Below are positions 34,371-45,082 of a DNA stretch of 64,000 nt, in pieces. The DNA comes from an uncultured Candidatus Saccharibacteria bacterium (GTDB lineage Bacteria; Patescibacteriota; UBA1384; JAGGWG01; CAZAJM01), in the NCBI GenBank assembly GCA_964485625.1, contig CAZAJM010000003.1, positions 6,349 to 70,348 on the forward strand. Reading direction: 5' to 3'. The first letter of the stretch is position 1, and every line of letters begins with the position of its first letter. The position numbers were made by a program, and so were the translations under genes. The notes under the pieces were generated by a model. That model had not been told where the DNA came from and searched no databases. It saw only the letters and a program-made list of their open reading frames with translations.

Positions 34371-35771
34371 ATGCTTAAAGACCATAGTGCTAGAGAACTT
34401 ACTAAAAAAATTGCTGGCAAGACCGTTAGATTAGCGGGCTTTGTCCATTCAATTCGCTCACATGGCAAAATTATCTTTATCGACCTTCGAGACTTTACAG
34501 GTCTGGTTCAAATAGTCTTTGATCCGGAGAATAAAGAGGCTCATAGAGCTGCTAAGAAACTTTCAGGAGAGTATGTCGTTACTATTGAGGGAGTAGTCAA
34601 GGAGAGGCCTTCCGGCATGGTCAATGATGATATCGTTTCAGGAGAGGTGGAGATTGAGGCCAAGAAACTAGAGATTCTCTCTAAGGCTAAAACACCTCCT
34701 TTTGAAGTAGACAAAGATACCAGAAACGTCTCTGAAGAGAAACGTCTAAAACATCGATATATAGATCTTCGAAGCCAGAGGATGATTGAGAACCTAAGAG
34801 TTAGAACCAAAGTTATTAGGTTTTTAACAGATTTTCTGATTGGCCAATCGTTTCTGGAGATAGAGACCCCATATATTACTAAAGGTACTCCCGAAGGAGC
34901 CAGAGAATATGTGGTGCCTTCAAGGCTTCACAAGGGTAATTTCTATGTCTTACCTCAATCTCCCCAACAATTTAAACAGCTTTTAATGGTTTCTGGAGTA
35001 GAGAGATACTTTCAAATTGCTAAAGCCTTCCGTGATGAGGACCCTCGAGCCGATAGGCAGCAAGAGTTTACTCAACTTGATATCGAGATGAGCTATATCA
35101 CTCAAGAGGATATTTTAACTATTGTTGAGCAGATGATGAGTGAGATGATAGAAGAACTTTTCCCAAATAAAAAGATAACTCAACTTCCTTTCCCCAGATT
35201 AACCTATCAGCAGGCAATGAAAGAGTACTCCTCAGATAGCCCCAACATGAAAAAAAGCCTTGAGGACCCAGATGAACTGGCCTTCTGTTGGGTAACTGAC
35301 TTTCCTTTAATGGAGTACTCGGAGAGCGAAGGTAAGCTGGTCTCAACTCATCACCCTTTTACTGCACCAAATGTGGAAGATATCAGCAAACTCGAGAGCC
35401 AGCCGGAGAAGGTTAGGGCCCAAGCCTACGATTTAGTTCTAAACGGTTATGAGGTAGCAGGGGGAAGCATTAGAATATCAGATCAAAAATTACAAGAGAA
35501 GGTCTTTCAAATTCTTGGTCTGTCTGATAGTGAGATCAAGGACAAGTTTGGTCATATGCTAGAAGCTTTTGAGTATGGAGTTCCTCCTCATGGTGGCATT
35601 GCCGGTGGGCTAGACCGCTTGGTAGCAGAGATCGCTAATGAAGATAATATCAGAGAAGTAATTGCCTTTCCTAAAACAGGCGACGGCAGAGACTTAATGA
35701 TGAATGCACCAAGCAAGATAAGTAAAAAACAACTTAAAGAGCTTGGTATAGAAATTGCTAAAGATGATTAA
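34371..35771 (+). CDS. aspS: aspartyl-tRNA synthetase lacking the bacterial GAD insertion (466 aa)
   Basis: OB-fold anticodon-binding domain plus a class II core (FRDEDPRADRQQEFTQLDIEMS, GGIAGGLDRL). Confidence 0.88.
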   Translation: MLKDHSARELTKKIAGKTVRLAGFVHSIRSHGKIIFIDLRDFTGLVQIVFDPENKEAHRAAKKLSGEYVVTIEGVVKERPSGMVNDDIVSGEVEIEAKKLEILSKAKTPPFEVDKDTRNVSEEKRLKHRYIDLRSQRMIENLRVRTKVIRFLTDFLIGQSFLEIETPYITKGTPEGAREYVVPSRLHKGNFYVLPQSPQQFKQLLMVSGVERYFQIAKAFRDEDPRADRQQEFTQLDIEMSYITQEDILTIVEQMMSEMIEELFPNKKITQLPFPRLTYQQAMKEYSSDSPNMKKSLEDPDELAFCWVTDFPLMEYSESEGKLVSTHHPFTAPNVEDISKLESQPEKVRAQAYDLVLNGYEVAGGSIRISDQKLQEKVFQILGLSDSEIKDKFGHMLEAFEYGVPPHGGIAGGLDRLVAEIANEDNIREVIAFPKTGDGRDLMMNAPSKISKKQLKELGIEIAKDD

Positions 35772-36697
35772 TGAGTAGTATTCTAGTATTTTTAATAGTC
35801 TTAACAGAGATTATAGGGTTTAACCTATCAAATTTAGATTCAACTAATTTATACACCTTCAATAAATCATCACTGAATAGTAGCTCGGTTAAATTACCCG
35901 AGATAGATTTAGAGCAGATAAATTCTTACCCAGTCAAATCTGACTCCTTTTACAAACCATTTATTACAGGTAGAAGCTACTTGGTCTATGATTACGGTTC
36001 CAATAGGACTCTAGCCAAACAGAAGGCACATAAAGAGCGTCCAATCGCTTCAATTACCAAGCTAATGACTGCAATAGTGGCAATTGAGAATATGGATCTC
36101 GATCAATACGTCAAAATTTCTAAAAAAGTGAATAAAGTTGGTGGTTCGAAACTCTGGATCGATCCAGGCCTGAATTTTAAAGTTAATGACCTTCTGGAAG
36201 CAATGCTTGTTAAGTCTGCCAATGATTGCGCATACTCTATCGCTCACGCCTACGATAAAGAACATGGGGATGGTCAATTTAGTAAACAGATGAACCAGAA
36301 GGCGGATGAACTTCTCATGTACTCAACCAATTTTGATGAATCGACAGGGCTTAGTGAAAAAAATACTTCTTCTGCTATCGATTTAAAAAAGTTAGCCAAC
36401 TACGCTCTAACCAAGCCGGAAATTAGAGAAGCGATTAACAAAACCAGCAGAACAATTGTCTCAAAAGAAGGCTACAATTACACAGCTAGGGCCTCAAACC
36501 AGATGCTCTCCACTGATAATGATATCTTTGGCATTAAGACGGGCTATCTAGAAGAGGCGGGCCATTGTTTTATGGCAGGCTCGGATAATGGTAGTGGTAA
36601 GATAATATCTATTATTTTGGATGCCGGTTCTACCACCTTAAGATTTAGCGACTCTAGAAAGCTTATTGATTGGGCAAGGGAAGTATATAGTTGGTAG
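35771..36697 (+). CDS. D-alanyl-D-alanine carboxypeptidase (PBP5/6-like, S11 peptidase)
   Basis: SxxK (ASITKLMT), SxN (SAND) and KTG motifs with an N-terminal signal/TM. Confidence 0.8.
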   Translation: MSSILVFLIVLTEIIGFNLSNLDSTNLYTFNKSSLNSSSVKLPEIDLEQINSYPVKSDSFYKPFITGRSYLVYDYGSNRTLAKQKAHKERPIASITKLMTAIVAIENMDLDQYVKISKKVNKVGGSKLWIDPGLNFKVNDLLEAMLVKSANDCAYSIAHAYDKEHGDGQFSKQMNQKADELLMYSTNFDESTGLSEKNTSSAIDLKKLANYALTKPEIREAINKTSRTIVSKEGYNYTARASNQMLSTDNDIFGIKTGYLEEAGHCFMAGSDNGSGKIISIILDAGSTTLRFSDSRKLIDWAREVYSW

Positions 36698-36710
36698 GTA
36701 TTTACATACC

Positions 36711-36749
36711 AAATAAAAAAGCCAACTTCAATATGTTGGTTCTTTTTTG
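36711..36749. terminator. bidirectional rho-independent terminator
   Basis: An A-run, then gccaac-ttcaatat-gttggt, then a T-run. Lies between convergent genes. Confidence 0.75.
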
Positions 36750-36774
36750 TAGATCAGTTATAGATAGACTAATT

Positions 36775-36849
36775 TTATGAAGCTGAGGCTGCCCACCAGA
36801 TAAGAATGATAATGACAAGGGCAATCACCAGCCACCAATACCAATCCAT
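36775..36849 (-). CDS. candidate 24-aa hydrophobic micro-peptide (MDWYWWLVIALVIIILIWWAASAS)
   Basis: Unannotated tiny ORF just downstream of the CcdA-like gene on the same strand. Coding status uncertain. Confidence 0.25.
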   Translation of the reverse strand: MDWYWWLVIALVIIILIWWAASAS

Positions 36850-36889
36850 AGATTATCAATTAATGATTTGGCCTATTATAGCAGATAAA

Positions 36890-37702
36890 CTAAATGGTTA
36901 CCAGCAAAAGCCAGAATCCTAAGCCAAAAATTAGAATCCCGGTTATTAGATGAAGGAGCTTGATATTTTTCTGACGCCACTCCTCGGTCTTCTCAACTTT
37001 AATAACAGAGTAATGAACAGCAAATATTATTAAGATAAGTGGTAGAACAAAGATTAGATTATAGTAAATTAGATAGAGTATAGTCGAGAACTCTTGACTC
37101 TCCAAGATACTAAGAGCAAAAAGATAGGGCCCTCCGGTACAAGGAAGCTCAAAAAATGAAATCAAAAAACCTACAAAAAAAGCAATTAATGGACTAGTTG
37201 CTCTAGTAATTAGATTGCCCATCTTTGGTCGCCAGTCCATTGGAATCTCCATCCTAAAAAACTTACCATAGAAAAAATAGTCTTTTATATTGAAAATCCC
37301 CACTAATATTGCTATTAGAGCGATGATAATATGGAAAAAATCAAGATTATCAAACAGGCCTATGCCTTTAATTAGCCCCAGCCCAATTAGCAAGTAAGAT
37401 ATAAAGATACCGGCAATAAAGGCCAAACCGGTCTGAATTATTTTTTTTCTAATCAATACCAAACCTTCAAGTAAGATCATCAGCACTGCTAGAGCACATG
37501 GATTGATAGAATCCGTTAAAGCTGCCAAAGTTATTAGAGTAAAACTACTCATACTATCTAGAGAGCCGCCGACCTGACAAGAGTAGCAAGGATCAATTAA
37601 ATAGTAGATTAGATAGGTAAGTGCGCCAACTCCGACAATAATGGAGATAAGTAAAATAAGTTTTGCTATAGACCTACTCTTTACCATACTCCGCCTCTCC
37701 AT
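36890..37702 (-). CDS. CcdA/DsbD-family thiol:disulfide transporter membrane protein with N-terminal CxxC
   Basis: Multi-TM with Cys in TM segments (INPCALA, ELPCTGGPY) and an N-terminal CYSC. Confidence 0.6.
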   Translation of the reverse strand: MERRSMVKSRSIAKLILLISIIVGVGALTYLIYYLIDPCYSCQVGGSLDSMSSFTLITLAALTDSINPCALAVLMILLEGLVLIRKKIIQTGLAFIAGIFISYLLIGLGLIKGIGLFDNLDFFHIIIALIAILVGIFNIKDYFFYGKFFRMEIPMDWRPKMGNLITRATSPLIAFFVGFLISFFELPCTGGPYLFALSILESQEFSTILYLIYYNLIFVLPLILIIFAVHYSVIKVEKTEEWRQKNIKLLHLITGILIFGLGFWLLLVTI

Positions 37703-38729
37703 TAATCTTAGAATTTAATTTAATAGCTGAGTGGATACCTACAGGGATCATTAGCCAAAATGAGATTAGCCGATAACCAATAACTGAAAAAATCGTTATA
37801 TCAAGAGGCAGACCAACATTAACTAACATCAACCCGAGAGCTCCCTCAACCACACCAAGACCGCCAGGTATAAAGGAAATTGCACCTAAGCTAGTTGCCA
37901 CGCCATAGGCAATAATTAGCTTGGCCGGGTGAATATAGGCTCCAAGTGAGAGAATAACAAAAAATAGCACTAGAATATCACCAACCCAATAGATAAGAGC
38001 GATAGCAGTTTGACGGGAAAAGATAGGGAGAGAGTCCATGGGAGAGAAGCCACTATGAATATCTCTGATAACGGCCTCTTTCTGGCTCATATTAAGTTTG
38101 GCTCTCTTTAGGATCACCATCTTGAAGTGATCTAAAAAACTTACAATTTTTTTAAAAAAATATCTAAAACGGTTAAAGTTTAGATAGAGATTTCTAGCTA
38201 GAATAATCCCGCCGACTAATATCAATAGCACTAATACTGATGCAACCTTGCCAGTAAATGAGACATCGGGGAGCGTGGGCATAAAAAGAAGACTTATTCC
38301 AAGAATTATAAAGAAGGCTGAGTAAGAGAAGATTAAACGGGTAATAATCATAGCCATAATATTACCTGTTGGGACCCCTCTTTTACGTAAGTAATAGTAG
38401 CTGTAGGCTGCCTCTCCAAAACCGGCTACTGGCACCAAATGAATCGCCATAATAGAGACCGTGCCCAATCTAAAAGCCTCTTTGTAATCTAATATATCTA
38501 CCTCTAGATGTTTTAATATAGATAAAATCAGATAGCCTGTCCCAAAATAGGCGAACAACTCAAATAGTAGGGCAACTAAAATCAGCAGAATATTTGCTTC
38601 ACTCAGAAGGTCAAAAATCTTATCAAAGCCAAGCCAGCTTGTAGCTAGGACATATATAGCTATGCCTACTATCAGAAGAACTACTATCTTCCTATAAGAT
38701 AAAGATTGATTAATCGACTGTTTCTTCAC
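37674..38729 (-). CDS. UPF0104 / lysylphosphatidylglycerol-synthase-TM-like (flippase-like) membrane protein
   Basis: 351 aa and polytopic. Its architecture is typical of the LPG_synthase_TM family. Confidence 0.5.
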   Translation of the reverse strand: MKKQSINQSLSYRKIVVLLIVGIAIYVLATSWLGFDKIFDLLSEANILLILVALLFELFAYFGTGYLILSILKHLEVDILDYKEAFRLGTVSIMAIHLVPVAGFGEAAYSYYYLRKRGVPTGNIMAMIITRLIFSYSAFFIILGISLLFMPTLPDVSFTGKVASVLVLLILVGGIILARNLYLNFNRFRYFFKKIVSFLDHFKMVILKRAKLNMSQKEAVIRDIHSGFSPMDSLPIFSRQTAIALIYWVGDILVLFFVILSLGAYIHPAKLIIAYGVATSLGAISFIPGGLGVVEGALGLMLVNVGLPLDITIFSVIGYRLISFWLMIPVGIHSAIKLNSKINGEAEYGKE

Positions 38730-39432
38730 TTTCTAGTTTTAATTTATCAAGAGCATTTTTAGCGGCACTTGCCTCAGCTTTCTGTTTGCTACTTCCTTCT
38801 CCTAGACCAACCTTCTTCTCATCCAAGAAAACTGCTATCTTAAAAACCTTATTATGGTCCGGGCCGGCCTCCGATACAACCTCATAGGCTGGAGTAATGC
38901 CATATTTATCTTGAGCTAATTCTTGAAAATAGGTCTTAGGATCGATATGCTTGCCTTCTTTGATAATAGATTCTAAGTAAGTAATAATTTCCGTTTGGAT
39001 AAATTTCTCCGCCTTCATATAACCTTGGTCTAAATAGATCGCTCCTATCAAGGCCTCAAAAGTACCGGCAAGAATCACTTCCTTCTCTCGGCCACCACTC
39101 TTTTCTTCTCCTTTGCTAAGCCTAAGATAGTTGCCTAAATCTAGCTTATTAGCCGCCTGAGCCAAATTAGAGCCTCTAACTAAGGCCGCTCGCCAGTTGG
39201 TGAGTACCCCCTCTCCTTTCTTTGGATAATTATCGTAGATATAGTCGGTCACTGCCAACTCCAAGACTGCATCACCAAGAAATTCCAACCTCTCATTATG
39301 CTCTATCTTCTTCTCTCGGTTCTCATTAACATATGATCGATGAACAAAAGCCCGCTTAAAAATATCCCTATCTTTAACCTCAATAGAGAAATTATCTTCT
39401 AAATAATCTAGTAAAGTCTTAAGCTTCTTCAT
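38710..39432 (-). CDS. rnc: ribonuclease III
   Basis: Signature ERLEFLGDAVLEL plus a C-terminal dsRBD. Start chosen at the internal Met. The ORF-track Met at 39471 would overlap nusB by 53 nt. Confidence 0.88.
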   Translation of the reverse strand: MKKLKTLLDYLEDNFSIEVKDRDIFKRAFVHRSYVNENREKKIEHNERLEFLGDAVLELAVTDYIYDNYPKKGEGVLTNWRAALVRGSNLAQAANKLDLGNYLRLSKGEEKSGGREKEVILAGTFEALIGAIYLDQGYMKAEKFIQTEIITYLESIIKEGKHIDPKTYFQELAQDKYGITPAYEVVSEAGPDHNKVFKIAVFLDEKKVGLGEGSSKQKAEASAAKNALDKLKLESEETVD

Positions 39433-39886
39433 CTTTCTTTCTCGGCTTATTAATCTTCTCTGACTCCTCACCTTTATGTCTATCTGAGGCCCTAAAAACT
39501 GTGCCTAGAACACCGTTGATAAAAGGAGCAGTATTCTCACCCCCAAACTCCTTGCCAAGCTCCACCGCCTCATCTATAGCTACCTTAGGAGGGATATCCT
39601 CTCTAAATAATAGCTCATAGACTCCAACAGTAAGAATAGCCAAATCGATATTATCGATCTTCTCTAAGGGCCAATCGGGAGCAGCGATCTCAATAGTCTT
39701 ATCGATTTGATCGATATTCTCCTTAATCTCCTTAACACACCGACTAACATAATCATCTTCTAGATTATCTGATGGATGAGTCTCTAAATTCTCTTTGGCT
39801 ATCTCAAAGATATCTTCTTCTTTCTCCTCAAACCGCCATTGATAGACGGTCTGCATTACTACCACTCTTGATTGATGTCTAGACAT
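39419..39886 (-). CDS. nusB: transcription antitermination protein NusB
   Basis: 155 aa, NusB helical fold (MSRHQSRVVVMQTVYQW...). Confidence 0.8.
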   Translation of the reverse strand: MSRHQSRVVVMQTVYQWRFEEKEEDIFEIAKENLETHPSDNLEDDYVSRCVKEIKENIDQIDKTIEIAAPDWPLEKIDNIDLAILTVGVYELLFREDIPPKVAIDEAVELGKEFGGENTAPFINGVLGTVFRASDRHKGEESEKINKPRKKDEEA

Positions 39887-39892
39887 AATTAA

Positions 39893-40078
39893 TTAGTTAG
39901 ATTCTTTGACAATCTCCTCATCTTTGTAATGTCCACAGTTAGGACAGACCTGATGGGGCATCTTCTTCTCTCCACATTCCTGACACTTAGCTAACTGAGC
40001 CATCTTTTTCTTAGAAAAATTGGCCTTCCTTCTTACCTTTCCCTTAGCTTTGGTCGTCTGTTTTTTTGGTTCTGGCAT
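39893..40078 (-). CDS. rpmF: 50S ribosomal protein L32
   Basis: Basic N-terminus with CQECG...CPNCG zinc ribbon. Confidence 0.8.
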   Translation of the reverse strand: MPEPKKQTTKAKGKVRRKANFSKKKMAQLAKCQECGEKKMPHQVCPNCGHYKDEEIVKESN

Positions 40079-40082
40079 GATA

Positions 40083-40571
40083 TTACTTATTATTTATTAA
40101 TTTTTTTAATTTTTGTAACTCAGGATGACCCTTATCTTCTTCCCTACAGTCACAGATCGACTCGTTTAAATTTTGGCCACAGATTTGACAGAGGCCCTTA
40201 CAATCCGACTGGCAGAGCTTCTTAGGAGGAAGCTGGCTGATAAGTTGATCGACTAGAGGCTTTTGGAGATCGACCTGGCCATCTTCATCGATCTCTAGCT
40301 CATCTTCTTCCGGCTGACTGGCAAATACTTGCTCTAGATTGATTTGATAATCACTTATAAACGACTCCAGGCAGCGATCACAAGTCAAACTCGGTTTAAG
40401 ATTAGTCTTAGCTGATATTAGATAGCTACTCTCATCCAACTTGCTAATTTTAATCTCAATCTCGATATCTTGATTAATCTCAATCAAATCATCCTTATAA
40501 TCTAGCCTCCCTTTCTTAATAACTGATCTCTGCCCATTATCGACAAGCTTTTGAGGATTGATCTTAATCAT
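40083..40571 (-). CDS. yceD: YceD/DUF177 family protein (23S rRNA accumulation protein)
   Basis: Conserved position upstream of rpmF. Has the Cys cluster CDRC...CQSDCKGLCQICG. Confidence 0.7.
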   Translation of the reverse strand: MIKINPQKLVDNGQRSVIKKGRLDYKDDLIEINQDIEIEIKISKLDESSYLISAKTNLKPSLTCDRCLESFISDYQINLEQVFASQPEEDELEIDEDGQVDLQKPLVDQLISQLPPKKLCQSDCKGLCQICGQNLNESICDCREEDKGHPELQKLKKLINNK

Positions 40572-40647
40572 CTGATTTTTCCAACTATTATTAACCTACT
40601 CAATCAGTTTAACAGATAAAGAGGTCTCTTTTCAAGACTTGATAGCC

Positions 40648-43071
40648 TCACCCCGTAATTATATTAACTAATTTAGGCGGCAGACCCGGCTTATTCTCTC
40701 TCTCAACTACAATCATATCTCTAACTTCACTGCCGTCAATATGCTTAGCTACATTACCTAAGCTAGCAATACTTTCCTTGATAGTAGTAATATCCTCTTG
40801 TGGGCTTGCTTGATAGAGAGCCCTTTTCTTACCATTAACCTGAACTACAACCGGGTAATTATCTTGCCTTAAACTAACTTTTGATGGTTTTGGCCAAGAA
40901 CTATTAAAAATAGTTGATTCATTACCAATCTCCTGCCACAGCTCTTCGCAGATATGAGGAAAGACGATTGAATTTATAATTATATATTTCTCAACTACCA
41001 ACTTGCTTAATTTACTATCTTTCTCAATCGAATTTAGAAATTTCATCAAGGAAGAGACGATAGTATTTAACTGAAAATTCTCCAGGTCCTCCTCAACTGA
41101 CTTGATTAGCCTATTAATTCTAGCTTCCTGACCCTCTATAGCTTCATCTACTATCTCTTTGCTACTTAGGGTGCTATGAAGACGATCTAGATACTTCCTG
41201 ACCCCCTCAATTCCACCATCATTCCACTCCTTGCTCTGCTCAGGCGGGCCGATAAAGAGCTCGTAACCTCTTAAAGAGTCTCTTCCATACTTTTCTACCA
41301 ACTTATCAGGCGAGACAACGTTACCGACCGACTTACTCATCTTCTTACCATCTCGGTAGATCATGCCCTGATTAAACAGAGATTTAAAGGGCTCGTTAAA
41401 TTCAATATGGCCTAACTTGTAGAGTGCCTTGGTGATAAAACGAGCATAGAGCAAGTGAAGCACGGCATGCTCAACCCCACCAACATATTTATCAACCGGT
41501 AACCACTTTTTCATTCTATCTTTATCAAATGGCTTGTTATTCAGGTTAGGATTAGGGTAGCGCAGATAGTACCAACTTGAGTCAACAAAGGTGTCCATAG
41601 TATCTGTCTCTCTTTCCGCCTGTCCACCGCATTTAGGGCACGAACAGTTAACAAACTCCTTATTCTTAGCCAGGGGAGAGCGACCGGACTTAGATGGCTT
41701 AAAGTCATCCATCTCAGGTAGCTTAATTGGTAGGTTCTCTTCTTTTTCGGCTACCACCCCACACTTAGGGCAATAGACGATTGGGATTGGCGTTCCCCAA
41801 TATCTTTGGCGACTAATGAGCCAGTCGTTAAGTTTGTAATTAACTCTAAACTCGGCCATATTATCTTTAGCTAAATCCTTAGCAATGGTCTCGCGAGCAT
41901 TCTTGCTCGCCTCACCGTCATAATCAGAGCTATTTACCAAAACTCCTTCACCCTCGTAGGCAGAATTAAGGTTTTCTAGCTTACCATTAGAGCTAATTAC
42001 TTGGATAATATTTAGGTTGTATTTTTTGGCAAACTCAAAATCTCGTTGATCATGGGCCGGTACTGCCATAATAGCGCCTGTACCATACTCTTCTAGCACA
42101 TAATCAGAGATCCAAATAGGAATCCTCTTGCCATTGACCGGATTAATAGCATAACTACCGGTAAAGACACCGGTCTTTTTCTTGCTTAGCTTGCGCTCTT
42201 TGATCGATTTAGACTTGGCCTTTTCCAAATAATCTTTAACTTCACTAACTTGCTTAGAAGTAGTCAATTTATCTACCAGATCAGACTCTGGAGCTAATGC
42301 TAGGAAGGTAGCGCCAAAGAGAGTATCGGCCCTAGTGGTAAACACTTCAATTAGCTCATCTTTATCTTCAACCTTAAACTTAAGCAGTACACCCTGGCTC
42401 CTACCAATCCAGTTTTTCTGCATCTTCTTTACTTTCTCCGGCCAATCTAGCCCATCTATATCACTATTTAACTGATCGGCAAAGTTAGTTATCTTAAAAA
42501 ACCACTGATTTAGTTTCTTGGTAGTAACCTCACTATCACAGCGCTCACAGAGACCTCCAACAACCTGCTCGTTTGCCAAGACCGTCTTACAACTAGGACA
42601 AAAATTTACAGGCGCCTCTTTACGATAGGCTAAACTCGCCTTAAATAGCTCCAAGAAAAGCCATTGAGTCCACTGATAGTAGTCTGGGGAAGAGGAGTTT
42701 ATCTCTAGGCTCCAATCATACATCCCTCCAATCTCTGTTAATTGGCGAGTGAAATTAGCAATAGCTTTGGTGGTATATTCCTTAGGATGAGTATTGTTCT
42801 TGATAGCAGCATTCTCTGCCGGCAGACCAAAAGCATCCCAACCCATGGGATGAAGCACCTCATAGCCACGAAGCTTCATATACCGGCTCCAAACGTCACT
42901 ATAGACATAGCCCGACCAGTGACCGACATGCAAGCCTTCTCCGGAAGGATAGGGGAACATATCCAGACAATAATATGGCTTACTAGTAGACAAATCTACT
43001 TTATGGCAACTGTTATCAGACCAGTAGTTCTGCCACTTCTCTTCAATTTTTTTATGATCATATTTATTCAT
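40648..43071 (-). CDS. leuS: leucyl-tRNA synthetase
   Basis: 807 aa. Has HIGH-type HVGH, KMSKS, the CP1 editing domain and zinc-binding Cys pairs. Confidence 0.93.
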   Translation of the reverse strand: MNKYDHKKIEEKWQNYWSDNSCHKVDLSTSKPYYCLDMFPYPSGEGLHVGHWSGYVYSDVWSRYMKLRGYEVLHPMGWDAFGLPAENAAIKNNTHPKEYTTKAIANFTRQLTEIGGMYDWSLEINSSSPDYYQWTQWLFLELFKASLAYRKEAPVNFCPSCKTVLANEQVVGGLCERCDSEVTTKKLNQWFFKITNFADQLNSDIDGLDWPEKVKKMQKNWIGRSQGVLLKFKVEDKDELIEVFTTRADTLFGATFLALAPESDLVDKLTTSKQVSEVKDYLEKAKSKSIKERKLSKKKTGVFTGSYAINPVNGKRIPIWISDYVLEEYGTGAIMAVPAHDQRDFEFAKKYNLNIIQVISSNGKLENLNSAYEGEGVLVNSSDYDGEASKNARETIAKDLAKDNMAEFRVNYKLNDWLISRQRYWGTPIPIVYCPKCGVVAEKEENLPIKLPEMDDFKPSKSGRSPLAKNKEFVNCSCPKCGGQAERETDTMDTFVDSSWYYLRYPNPNLNNKPFDKDRMKKWLPVDKYVGGVEHAVLHLLYARFITKALYKLGHIEFNEPFKSLFNQGMIYRDGKKMSKSVGNVVSPDKLVEKYGRDSLRGYELFIGPPEQSKEWNDGGIEGVRKYLDRLHSTLSSKEIVDEAIEGQEARINRLIKSVEEDLENFQLNTIVSSLMKFLNSIEKDSKLSKLVVEKYIIINSIVFPHICEELWQEIGNESTIFNSSWPKPSKVSLRQDNYPVVVQVNGKKRALYQASPQEDITTIKESIASLGNVAKHIDGSEVRDMIVVERENKPGLPPKLVNIITG

Positions 43072-43110
43072 TACAGACCTAATTTATCACAAACCAAGCT
43101 ATTTTTCAAT

Positions 43111-43141
43111 CAAAAAATCCACCTTCTTCTATCTTTGGTGG
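43111..43141 (-). promoter_or_regulatory. terminator-like hairpin plus U-run in leuS 5' leader (attenuator candidate)
   Basis: On the minus strand, CCACC-AAAGAUAGAAGAA-GGUGG followed by AUUUUUUG, about 40 nt upstream of the leuS AUG. Confidence 0.4.
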
Positions 43142-43900
43142 AATATTATGAGTGAGTGTGTTGGGCCGAGGGGAGGAGGAGTGTAAATAGTATCATTGAC
43201 GAGGGTTTCCCCAAGTCACATTCAAATTCACACTCCTCTCCCGCTCAGCTCCTAGATTTCCGGACTTTTTTTTAGTTTACCCCTTGACCACATAACTGCT
43301 GCCAGTAGTTGATGTCCGGTATCAACTTAGGCATATGCGCTCAAGAAGCTTGACAGCTCAGATTTACACCCAATCGGGCTGCCCGCAATTGCAGGCTCTG
43401 GCTGTCAATTCCTTAGGATGATTGCCGGGAAGGGGAGAAGCGAGATTAGGTCACTACCCCGTTGTATCTTCGATCGGGGCGCACCCTTTGTGATCTCACT
43501 TCCCCTTCCCTAGGCCCTGCTTCGTCGTCCTCCTTTTATTCCCGGGTAAGCAGGGTAAGCCCAGGAGGAGGAAATTCGGAAGGATGATTGCCCGAGACGG
43601 GTCATGGCGTGGTGAATCGCTCGCCGCCTCGGAAGACAGTTTTGTCCCCCACCTGGTACCCTCAATGGGGTTTTCTCCAGGTGAGGCTACGCTCTGCCTT
43701 TCCAGAAGCCCATGGGCCCTCCCCACGGCTGTAGTCCCCACTCCTCTTCGCCCGAGGAGTGGGGGGGGGTCGACGACTCATACGTCATCCCCTCGTGCGC
43801 TACCTACTTCATACGCATCATCCTTTCTCGCCCTCCTTCTGGTGCGTCATGCCCCAGGAGGGCCTATCTAATAACTTTATGCCTCCCTTAACTGAGTCAG
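43140..43900. other. GC-rich ORF-free island (about 760 nt), a candidate large structured ncRNA or remnant of foreign DNA
   Basis: Its composition is visibly much more GC-rich than the flanking AT-rich DNA. It has long purine/pyrimidine runs (GGGGGGGGG, GGAGGAGGAG), many hairpins and an internal repeat aggatgattgcc at about 43407 and 43580. Only short ORFs occur in any frame. Confidence 0.5.
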
Positions 43901-44008
43901 GGTAGGCTATTGTTGGTGCGATTTATCTTGAAACTACTATACACTATTATTAGTTGTATGTCAATAGTTTCAGCCTTATCTCTTAATTTGTCTTATATAA
44001 GGGAAATA

Positions 44009-44040
44009 AAAGCAGGCCTAATAACAGGCCCGCTTTTTTA
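44009..44040. terminator. hairpin plus T-run terminator (bidirectional; also ends the DUF378 gene on the minus strand)
   Basis: gcaggcc-taataaca-ggcccgc followed by tttttt, flanked upstream by an A-rich stretch. Confidence 0.55.
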
Positions 44041-44052
44041 CTGATAGCTCGG

Positions 44053-44271
44053 TTAGCTCATTTCAGTTGACTCGCCGCCACCTGAGAATAGTTTTACTAA
44101 TACCCAAAGTGCAGAAAGACCAACAAGAGCGTAGATTACTCGAGATAGAGTAGACATGTCGCCAAAAATGGCAGCAACTAGATCCCAGCTGAAGAAACCA
44201 ACTAGACCCCAGTTAAGACCACCTACAACTACCAAGATGTAAGCTATCCAGTCAAGAGTAGTTTTTTGCAT
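44053..44271 (-). CDS. DUF378-family small membrane protein
   Basis: 72 aa. ...LDWIAYILVVVGGLNWGLVGFFSWDLVAAIFG... matches the DUF378 consensus. Confidence 0.7.
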   Translation of the reverse strand: MQKTTLDWIAYILVVVGGLNWGLVGFFSWDLVAAIFGDMSTLSRVIYALVGLSALWVLVKLFSGGGESTEMS

Positions 44272-44395
44272 AATTACTCCCTTTCTATGGATTAATTTCT
44301 ATAATAACGATCAATTACATTATACTATATCTATTTAACAAATGACAATATTGTGATATATTAGTCCTAGAAATAGAAAAATAATATATTAAACC

Positions 44396-44671
44396 ATGCT
44401 ATCAAAACTACCAATTGATTTAGACAAAGTTTCTGATGAGAACATCGACAAAGAAATTGCCAGAGCAGGTATAATTGCAGAGTATGATGCTATTAGTTTC
44501 TATGAACAGATGGCAGCTAAAGCTAAAGATTCTAAGCTCAAAAAAGTCCTTATGGCAGTTGCTAAGGAAGAGAAGGAGCATGTAGGTGAGTTTCAGGCCA
44601 TGCTTCTAAAATGGGACAAAGAGCAGATTAGTGAAATGAAAGAAGGTGAGAAAGAAGTAGAGGAGATGTAG
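44396..44671 (+). CDS. encapsulated-ferritin-like (EncFtn/ferritin-like diiron) small protein, no obvious targeting peptide
   Basis: ...IAEYDAISFYEQM...AVAKEEKEHVGEFQAMLLKW... matches the EncFtn E/ExxH motif pattern. Confidence 0.6.
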   Translation: MLSKLPIDLDKVSDENIDKEIARAGIIAEYDAISFYEQMAAKAKDSKLKKVLMAVAKEEKEHVGEFQAMLLKWDKEQISEMKEGEKEVEEM

Positions 44672-44682
44672 AACAAACTAAA

Positions 44683-44714
44683 AAGACCGGTTGTGTAAAA
44701 ATCGGTCTTTTTTA
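44683..44714 (+). terminator. rho-independent terminator
   Basis: agaccgg-ttgtgtaaaaat-cggtct followed by ttttttatt. Confidence 0.75.
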
Positions 44715-44736
44715 TTCCATTAATTAATACTAATAT

Positions 44737-44788
44737 TATGGGTTCTTCACCCCATTATTTTTATATAATTAAAAAATGGAGCTAATGG
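44737..44788. repeat. 52-bp perfect direct repeat copy 1 (tRNA-Ala 3' 12 nt plus 40-nt trailer); att-like
   Basis: Identical to 44919-44970. On the minus strand it reads 5'-CCAUUAGCUCCA followed by the trailer. Confidence 0.85.
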
Positions 44789-44918
44789 CCCGCCCGGCAA
44801 TCGCCTGACGGCTCAAGCCGGATGGCGGACGGGGATTTGAAGCTGTTGGCCCTACTTGAAGTTTAAACTTAATCTCAACCGATATACTCAAAAACAGAAC
44901 AAATTCTATCACCTCAGG

Positions 44919-44970
44919 TATGGGTTCTTCACCCCATTATTTTTATATAATTAAAAAATGGAGCTAATGG
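44919..44970. repeat. 52-bp perfect direct repeat copy 2 (overlaps the 3' end of the intact tRNA-Ala)
   Basis: tatgggttcttcaccccattatttttatataattaaaaaatggagctaatgg. Confidence 0.85.
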
Positions 44971-45031
44971 GATTTGAACCCATGGCCTCGTGAATGCCAT
45001 TCACGCGCTCTACCAACTGAGCTATAGCCCC
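44959..45031 (-). tRNA. tRNA-Ala (anticodon GGC), CCA not encoded
   Basis: Minus strand: GGGGCUAUAGCUCAGUUGGUAGAGCGCGUGAAUGGCAUUCACGAGGCCAUGGGUUCAAAUCCCAUUAGCUCCA. It folds as a cloverleaf with the G3:U70 Ala identity pair, anticodon loop AUGGCAU and T-loop UUCAAAU. Confidence 0.9.
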
Positions 45032-45082
45032 ATATTATCTATGAGGTTATTTTAGCTTAAATTTGCTATTCTGTCAAAGGTT

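Follow-up and report, generated by a model that had tools for sequence, protein, structure and literature searches.

What is encoded in the spacer between leuS and the upstream DUF378 gene of an uncultured Candidatus Saccharibacteria bacterium? In the stretch of DNA analyzed here (64,000 nucleotides [nt], hereafter the window), this 981-nt spacer harbors a GC-rich island, for which an initial annotation had offered three explanations: an unusually large structured noncoding RNA (ncRNA), a giant leader of leuS, or a decayed insertion of foreign DNA. The first of these is favored by a promoter of its own, a terminator-like end, homologs in the same slot, compensatory base changes, and the lack of any conserved open reading frame (ORF). 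Conserved within a small clade, the island is most likely a minus-strand gene for a structured RNA, which is probably a stand-alone molecule rather than a leuS leader. Taken as a whole, the reading that this is a stand-alone minus-strand gene of ~0.8 kb, transcribed in the same direction as leuS and specifying a GC-rich, highly structured ncRNA, is one in which our confidence is somewhat better than even. The RNA is filed here as a new family of a known kind, the large ornate bacterial ncRNAs, with a narrow distribution and outside the families catalogued in Rfam 15.

To our knowledge, bacterial ncRNAs that are longer than ~500 nt and have complex conserved folds are few, namely, rRNAs, group II introns, GOLLD, ROOL, and OLE. 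The biochemistry of each has proved out of the ordinary. RNA-only nanocages are built by ROOL and GOLLD, and OLE assembles into a homo-oligomeric complex (PMC12286853). If the gene is real, maintaining a structured RNA of 0.7 to 0.8 kb would be expensive for a reduced, AT-rich genome, and the retention of such a gene would imply an important role, since such organisms shed many functions; it would also be a new candidate for structural and functional study. The scope of the finding is a handful of metagenomic contigs, with the gene predicted from their sequences.

A GC-rich island between leuS and the DUF378 gene

The GC content of positions 43140-43900, the interval delimited by the initial annotation, is 54.4%, compared to 38.9% for the whole window. 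Among segments of the same size (761 nt), the standard deviation (SD) is 3.1%, which puts the island ~5 SD above the mean; no other 761-nt segment exceeds 45.1%, making the island the strongest compositional outlier in the 64 kb. In 100-nt segments, its local GC content peaks at 60 to 67%. The description of a GC-rich island in AT-rich DNA is thus correct, with the contrast computed against the 64-kb window. The same is true of the statement that it contains no ORF beyond ~95 codons: the longest one encodes 95 amino acids (aa) (43584..43871, plus strand), and the eight longest ORFs of the island have no Pfam matches, even at E ≤ 1. A 137-codon plus-strand ORF (42742-43155), antisense to the 5′ end of leuS, extends into the edge of the island and is almost certainly spurious.

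The finer sequence features reported for the island proved to be of uneven value. Its long complementary segments include the inverted repeat I1 (GGGAGGAGGAGTGT / ACACTCCTCTCCC; 43165-43188 with 43226-43249, spacing of 37 nt), which also pairs, with compensatory changes, in the homolog L168 (helix H15; see below). The internal duplicated motif is a direct repeat, D1, whose 29-nt copies (43407-43435 and 43573-43601) lie 166 nt apart and are 76% identical. Of the supposed G9 and C9 tracts, a single G9 is present on the plus strand (43761-43769) and corresponds to C9 in the RNA; a second, separate C9 tract is absent. The purine/pyrimidine strand asymmetry is mild, with a purine fraction of 0.39 to 0.49. 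Hairpins followed by U-runs had been noted on both strands. The one at 44008-44037 is a strong bidirectional terminator; the other, at 43240-43275, is not a plus-strand terminator but the complement of an A8 linker in the minus-strand RNA and was not flagged by the terminator scan.

The island is not an assembly artifact, because independent assemblies cover both of its junctions. At 100% identity, Logan contigs assembled from two runs correspond to window positions 35524-43625 (L082) and ~43148-44766 (L083), which rules out an assembly chimera.

Strand, promoter, and 3′ end

On the minus strand, just downstream of the DUF378 terminator, lies a sigma-70-type promoter (Table 1) that scored 11 out of 12 in a promoter scan. 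Contigs L168 and L178 from related organisms share both of its hexamers (−35 and −10) unchanged with the window, along with most of the intervening spacer. From this promoter and the hairpin with a U-run at the other end, we infer the ends of the transcript; its independence from leuS is likewise a prediction. The predicted RNA covers approximately positions 43112-43929, with the promoter reaching 43964, so that the interval 43140-43900 was a real but slightly too short rendering of the element. The initial annotation had assigned it neither a strand nor transcript ends.

The terminator-like hairpin at the 3′ end has a stem of 5 to 6 bp and an energy of −8.3 kcal/mol in the window (range, −8 to −12 kcal/mol). 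The terminator scan did not flag it because its loop exceeds 8 nt. The sequences of the stem and the U-run are kept in L168 and L084. No conserved segment complementary to either terminator arm, that is, no anti-terminator, was found, and in the window RNA CCACC occurs only as the terminator arm. Between this hairpin and the coding region, leuS has a proximal promoter of its own, and the same arrangement is conserved in five related lineages (L084, L168, L085, L086, and L087). Since its extended −10 element ends 9 nt before the leuS ATG, the leuS mRNA would be nearly leaderless, which fits the absence of a Shine-Dalgarno sequence before this ATG (43069-43071); the neighboring DUF378 gene has one.

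Folding energies favor the minus strand. For the window element, the minimum free energy (MFE) is −351.7 to −354.6 kcal/mol on the minus strand versus −323.2 to −326.4 kcal/mol on the plus strand, and the z scores against dinucleotide shuffles are −8.5 and −5.4, respectively. The L168 RNA has a z score of −7.3 in the sense direction and an MFE of −262.0 kcal/mol (sense) versus −248.5 kcal/mol (antisense).

Homologs in the same slot and conservation of structure

The loci of relatives were located through matches to leucyl-tRNA synthetase (LeuRS) and the DUF378 protein in a large protein collection, and the respective contigs were then compared. The gene order DUF378-spacer-leuS is conserved among these contigs. 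The spacer is 840 nt long in L168, L169, and L170 (three sequencing runs; LeuRS 76% identical to that of the window over 406 aa, DUF378 81% identical), 778 nt in L087, 1,768 nt in L086, and 364 nt in L085, where it is short and weakly GC-rich. A full-length homolog of the window RNA, ~665 nt long, occupies this slot in L168 (8743..9407). Three more homologs are partial: L084, whose LeuRS is 80% identical to that of the window, has the 3′ end (126 nt upstream of leuS); the match in L178 consists of the promoter plus the first 35 nt; and L171, from a fourth sequencing run, has the 5′ part. The window, L168 (with L169, L170, and L171), L084, and L178 are referred to here as family A.

Over the aligned columns, the window and L168 RNAs are 62% identical. 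Their RNAalifold consensus comprises 106 pairs, 18 of which show compensatory changes on both sides between these two full-length sequences. As a control, sliding the 3′ partners by 1 to 3 columns left 1 to 3 double-change pairs and 45 to 55% pairing, and none of 500 shuffles reached the observed value. G-U pairs fill 20 of the 212 cells of the consensus pairs; read on the other strand, these would be A-C mismatches. In a less circular test, the window's own MFE structure was projected onto L168, which kept 111 of its 160 pairs, versus 66 to 79 with slid partners.

The element is noncoding, because the indels between the window and L168 (13, 14, 18, 28, 29, and 88 nt) are not confined to multiples of three and because the resemblance between their longest antisense ORFs is limited to the first five residues (MIARD, encoded by the conserved GUCUCGGGCAAUCAUCCUU). 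No conserved ORF was found between the window and L168. A protein-coding gene or pseudogene was accordingly rejected, as none of the eight longest ORFs matched Pfam at E ≤ 1 and none is kept in L168.

Predicted fold of the family A RNA

The window/L168 alignment and its RNAalifold consensus, which has 18 helices, supplied the coordinates of the structural elements listed in Table 1. Domain 1 has three branches (H6-H8, H9, and H10), and compensatory changes are found in H8 and in H9. Covariance model R1, built on this domain, matches only family A loci. In the long 3′ hairpin H15, 5 of the 11 consensus pairs are compensatory relative to L168, and its tip GGGGAAACCC (GGG-GAAA-CCC) is invariant.

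The middle of the RNA is variable. An extra domain that is absent from L168 sits in the window between the copies of the D1 repeat (~43436-43572), with gaps in the L168 alignment at window positions 43519-43492, 43470-43453, and 43433-43405. It has a long hairpin (GGGAAGGGGA/UCCCCUUCCC; 43427-43436 with 43501-43510, inverted repeat I11) and terminates in the second copy of GGCAAUCAUCCU. This domain looks like a lineage-specific duplication of a “hairpin + GGCAAUCAUCCU..GAAUU” unit, the same one as in the D1 repeat.

GOLLD, ROOL, and OLE form homo-oligomers through kissing loops and A-minor bridges. The GAAA tetraloop hairpin conserved in family A is not diagnostic of an RNA-only assembly. A candidate palindromic kissing loop, GCAAUUGC, is specific to the window, and nothing was made of it.

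TABLE 1 Coordinates of the family A RNA gene, its parts, and its surroundings (window positions unless a contig is named)
Feature	Position	Strand	Remarks
leuS (leucyl-tRNA synthetase, 807 aa)	40648..43071	−	Downstream neighbor
Proximal leuS promoter	43081..43109	−	TTGAAA, 17 nt, TG-n-TAAATT (extended −10); ends 9 nt before leuS ATG
Predicted ncRNA gene, family A	43112..43929	−	~818 nt, 53% GC; putative ends, placed from promoter and hairpin + U-run
Terminator-like 3′ end	43112..43141	−	CCACC (43141-43137), 13-nt loop, GGUGG (43123-43119), A, U6 (43117-43112)
Long 3′ hairpin H15, GGGAGGAGGAGUGU/ACACUCCUCUCCC	43170..43242	−	Apical GGG-GAAA-CCC tetraloop hairpin, 43217-43198
A8 single-stranded linker	43266..43273	−	T8 on plus strand; conserved A7 run at the same place in L168
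Second window-specific insertion	43286..43373	−	88 nt; gap in L168, alignment columns 603-690
Window-specific extra domain (part)	43405..43519	−	Between repeat copies; absent from L168
Domain 1	43563..43840	−	Closed by long-range helices H4 and H5; encloses H6-H10
H4	43840-43831 with 43572-43563	−	Long-range helix; carries compensatory changes
H5, AAGGAUGAUGC / GCAAUCAUCCUU	43825-43815 with 43591-43580	−	Long-range helix; invariant
H7, C9/G-rich hairpin	43767-43736	−	Within Domain 1; compensatory changes
5′ hairpin H2, GCCUACCCUGAC-UCA-GUUAAGGGAGGC	43881..43907	−	Most conserved block; 11 pairs, one compensatory (U-A to C-G) relative to L168
5′ end, AUCGCACC	RNA 5′ terminus	−	Conserved, single-stranded
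Sigma-70-type promoter of the RNA gene	43936..43964	−	TTGACA (43964..43959), 17-nt spacer, TATAGT (43941..43936); predicted start, ~43929
DUF378 terminator	44037..44008	−	Strong, bidirectional, −20.7 kcal/mol
DUF378 membrane protein gene	44053..44271	−	Upstream neighbor
tRNA-Ala(GGC)	44958-45032	−	Single tRNA (ARAGORN), ~1 kb from the island
Family B and C loci	L086 8320-9285 and 9337-9960; L087 9425-9960; L172 880-1235		L086 has both in tandem

Comparison with known RNA families

A search of the window with all 4,227 models of Rfam 15 at the gathering threshold returned only tRNA-Ala. ARAGORN likewise found tRNA-Ala and no transfer-messenger RNA (tmRNA), and no Rfam tmRNA match was detected in the island. 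At E ≤ 10, the island yielded only sub-threshold noise, mostly on the DUF378 terminator, which is where all the matches to RsaE, SSRC38, SurA, and L20-leader fall; the microRNA matches are plain hairpins. Contigs L085, L086, L087, and L168 gave no family match either (E ≤ 5 to 10). The inability of the initial annotation to match the island to RNase P, tmRNA, a T-box, or an intron is thus upheld by Rfam 15 and ARAGORN.

Kinship with GOLLD, ROOL, or HEARO, to which the initial annotation had alluded on the grounds of a shared genomic context, is not borne out, as no Rfam model matched the window or its homolog at E ≤ 10 and neither prophage genes nor an IscB-type ORF are found nearby. The context argument is itself weak, because two conserved genes of housekeeping type and a distance of ~1 kb separate the tRNA from the island. 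The covariance models of GOLLD (its conserved 3′ domain; E ≤ 10), ROOL (a fold with six multistem junctions as well as three pseudoknots), and OLE remained unmatched in both the window and L168. For HEARO (the IscB omega RNA), there was no Rfam match and no IscB/HNH nuclease ORF within several kilobases. Group I and group II introns were rejected in the same way, with no covariance model match and no intron-encoded ORF nearby.

Some general likenesses to the large RNAs can nevertheless be noted. The window RNA resembles GOLLD in being a very large (~800 nt) structured bacterial ncRNA with a tRNA gene within ~1 kb and in combining a conserved and a variable part (here, conservation is seen in the 5′ half and variation in the middle). 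GOLLD, however, is encoded in phages or prophages, often beside tRNA islands, whereas the window RNA is found in a housekeeping chromosomal context of a CPR-like genome, with no phage or viral similarity and no prophage genes nearby. ROOL RNA, which is ~581 nt long (Weinberg et al. 2017, PMC5737381), also has its usual place in phages or prophages, close to tRNA islands (PMC12286853). It shares with the window RNA the large size, the multi-branched structure with few invariant nucleotides, and the detection signal, a long GC-rich intergenic region; it differs in that the window RNA has no Rfam match and, within a small clade, keeps a fixed place between the DUF378 gene and leuS. OLE, for which a trans-acting role as a ribonucleoprotein or architectural RNA is presumed, is similar in being a chromosomal large structured RNA with its own expression signals, but no genes for OLE-associated proteins adjoin the window RNA, and the host LeuRS is closest to Patescibacteria-labeled proteins (~56%), not to those of Firmicutes extremophiles.

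The T-box riboswitch is the known element with the most similar position: it, too, directly precedes a co-oriented aminoacyl-tRNA synthetase gene and has a hairpin and a U-run at its end. The window RNA is three to four times longer than a typical T-box and is followed, downstream of its hairpin, by the separate conserved leuS promoter. The T-box model RF00230 was unmatched at E ≤ 10 in the window and L168, and neither a T-box sequence nor a terminator/anti-terminator alternative was found.

Other large RNAs in the DUF378-leuS slot

In more distant relatives, the same slot is occupied by other GC-rich RNA genes. Family B, found in L086 and L087 (LeuRS 62% identical to that of the window), is ~450 to 540 nt long and has a TTGACA-17-TATAAT promoter and its own terminator. 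Over 366 nt, its two copies share 82% identity, and their consensus has 111 pairs, 9 of them compensatory. Family C, ~950 nt long, is located upstream of family B in L086, has its own sigma-70 promoter and terminator, and is common to L172, L173, and L174. Neither blastn, nhmmer, nor R1 (applied unfiltered to the L086 and L085 spacers) revealed any relation of family A to family B, family C, or the L085 spacer beyond hairpin-level noise. Each of the six RNAs from families A, B, and C contains the heptamer UCCACCA. It forms the 5′ arm of the terminator in family A (window positions 43134-43140); within families B and C it is found at nonhomologous positions. By a rough estimate, its chance expectation ranges from ~0.03 to ~1, depending on the null model, and the shared heptamer is treated here as unproven.

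Families A, B, and C are either unrelated RNAs that have been recruited to one slot or homologs that have diverged beyond recognition. A bolder reading, less likely than not, is that the slot is a dedicated locus for independently transcribed, large (0.45 to 0.95 kb), GC-rich structured RNAs with a fast turnover, represented by three families in sister lineages. If these families are functional analogs or diverged homologs, they would constitute a new class of ornate RNAs in ultra-small bacteria and might be RNA-only assemblies or scaffolds that tolerate wholesale replacement of their sequences. The presence of unrelated large GC-rich RNA sequences in one slot raises the question of whether fold, or mere presence, can outweigh sequence in RNA evolution.

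Contigs from at least six independent assemblies stop inside, or at the edge of, the GC-rich RNA genes of this slot. L081 ends at window position 43144, L083 starts at ~43148, L082 ends at 43625, and L084 starts 126 nt before leuS; the contigs L171, L178, L172, L173, and L174 end within the RNA. These breaks could come from a loss of coverage in GC-rich DNA or from micro-heterogeneity of the population.

Distribution

In a set of 80 leuS loci taken from GTDB species representatives, the closest of which encodes a LeuRS 54% identical to that of the window, nhmmer detected no similar sequence, and no comparable GC peak was seen upstream of leuS in these same loci. An nhmmer search of 80 DUF378 loci from Joint Genome Institute (JGI) metagenomes and blastn searches of phage and plasmid collections were also negative. 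Scans of IMG/VR with four conserved motifs returned a single match, L179; it falls on a phage gene's ribosome-binding site and start and was dismissed as due to chance. With the N-terminal 160 residues of LeuRS as the query, only fragments with up to 66% identity were retrieved. Among named LeuRS proteins, the closest are labeled Patescibacteria or Berkelbacteria (~56 to 57% identity), and the host is probably a member of a Patescibacteria (CPR) lineage that lacks a close sequenced representative. The DUF378 relatives P0126, P0131, and P0133 were set aside as not syntenic.

Alternative explanations

The most serious competitor is a giant cis-acting leuS leader, in which transcription would proceed from the 43964 promoter on through the structured RNA, and the hairpin with its U6 would serve as a regulated attenuator of leuS, sensing, for example, tRNA-Leu or LeuRS. 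The element is co-oriented with and adjoins leuS in every lineage that has it, its terminator sequence is strongly conserved, the weakness of the hairpin makes partial read-through likely, and relatives have two further GC-rich RNAs, not detectably similar to it, just upstream of leuS. This last observation cuts both ways, as a common core would be expected if these RNAs sensed the same ligand and they share none. In all lineages, the short-spacer L085 among them, the hairpin is separated from the leuS ATG by the conserved extended −10 promoter; models of leaders, the T-box included, gave no match at E ≤ 10; and neither arm of the terminator has a conserved anti-terminator partner. Known aminoacyl-tRNA synthetase leaders are also several times shorter than 665 to 818 nt. 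Such a leader is therefore disfavored, weak though the 3′ hairpin is (−8 to −12 kcal/mol), and we regard it as unlikely. A functionless remnant, be it decaying foreign DNA of higher GC content or what is left of a mobile element in an intergenic hotspot near tRNA-Ala, would account for the strong GC contrast with the host, for the different GC-rich sequences held by relatives in the same slot, for the att-like duplicated ends with small GC-rich inserts at the tRNA-Ala ~1 kb away, and for the many contigs of independent assemblies that break inside these elements. It would hardly be expected to have a perfectly conserved promoter, a highly conserved 5′ region, a terminator-like end, and helices maintained by compensatory changes. 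Moreover, no protein-coding remnant, integrase, transposase, or flanking terminal repeats were found, phage, plasmid, and viral collections contain nothing similar, and the syntenic DUF378 and EncFtn-like genes stand between the element and the tRNA. The foreign-insertion alternative of the initial annotation is thus unsupported, and we consider it quite improbable.

Even less probable is an extremely divergent member of a known family that was missed by the models (RNase P RNA, tmRNA, a group I or group II intron, or a relative of OLE, GOLLD, ROOL, or HEARO). Size and GC-richness are comparable, and AAAGUCCGG in the window copy recalls a strand of RNase P helix P4, whose conserved strands are GGAAAGUCC / ACAGAAnnCGGCUUA. 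But this P4-like segment is deleted in L168, and the RNase P idea was dropped because AAAGUCCGG is not conserved; none of the RNase P models matched. In addition, searches of the window, L168, L086, and L087 found no Rfam 15 family even at E ≤ 5 to 10, ARAGORN detected no tmRNA, and there is no intron-encoded or IscB-like ORF nearby.

The favored reading, a stand-alone gene for a structured RNA, has several points against it as well. Only two full-length sequences are at hand; the covariation count is partly circular, because the structure was predicted from the same alignment; and the alifold energies of the two strands are nearly equal (−116.4 versus −110.8). The distribution is very narrow, the RNA being absent from the GTDB, metagenome, phage, plasmid, and viral sets that were searched. 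The whole case is built on predicted folds and on the sequences of a few metagenomic contigs. Because the 3′ hairpin is weak, transcription may plausibly continue into leuS, and the RNA could then serve as a leader as well. Finally, the function proposed below, that of a trans-acting architectural or scaffold RNA, is a best guess by analogy.

Proposed expression and function

In the scheme that we propose, the sigma-70 promoter (43964..43936) would start a minus-strand transcript at ~43929. Its fold would begin with the 5′ hairpin and continue through a multi-branched domain, shut by the long-range helix AAGGAUGAUGC/GCAAUCAUCCUU, to a middle part that varies and appears to have been enlarged in this genome by the duplicated unit, followed by an A-rich linker and the GAAA-capped 3′ hairpin. 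Transcription would stop at the short hairpin with U6 (43141..43112), and leuS would then rely on its own extended −10 promoter, giving an mRNA that is nearly leaderless. The RNA itself may act in trans as an architectural scaffold for a protein partner or as an RNA-only assembly, similarly to OLE, ROOL, and GOLLD. Fast sequence turnover and lineage-specific gains of domains would fit an RNA that relies on its overall fold and on a few single-stranded and tetraloop elements.

Genomic surroundings

The neighborhood of the island includes leuS, yceD, rpmF, nusB, rnc, the DUF378 gene, and a gene for an EncFtn-like protein. The last two, both syntenic in relatives, separate the island from tRNA-Ala. 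The att-like duplication that the initial annotation had noticed at this tRNA, ~1 kb from the island, is indeed there: a 52-nt direct repeat (44739-44790 and 44921-44972) downstream of tRNA-Ala copies the 3′ 12 nt of the tRNA plus the terminator. The second repeat copy is a tRNA 3′ fragment (T-loop UUCAAAUCCC ... CAUUAGCUCCA) split by a GC-rich hairpin insert of ~44 nt. An analogous extra fragment of the tRNA-Ala T-arm and acceptor is present in L168 (7452-8002), where it is split by a different GC-rich hairpin; the same region also contains a GC hairpin preceded by a 5′ GGGGCUA fragment. These tRNA-Ala duplications may be integration scars or small GC-rich insertion elements.

At ~36700-36900, the genes of the window switch from the plus to the minus strand in a convergent arrangement, and the cumulative GC skew peaks at ~37 kb. 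Convergent genes together with a skew peak are the pattern of a replication terminus region, here ~6 kb from the island. In L085, a tyrosine recombinase gene (310-1122; Phage_integrase/SAM_4 domains) is located ~1.2 kb upstream of the DUF378 gene; its product could be XerC/D-like or could be a sign of integration activity near the locus.

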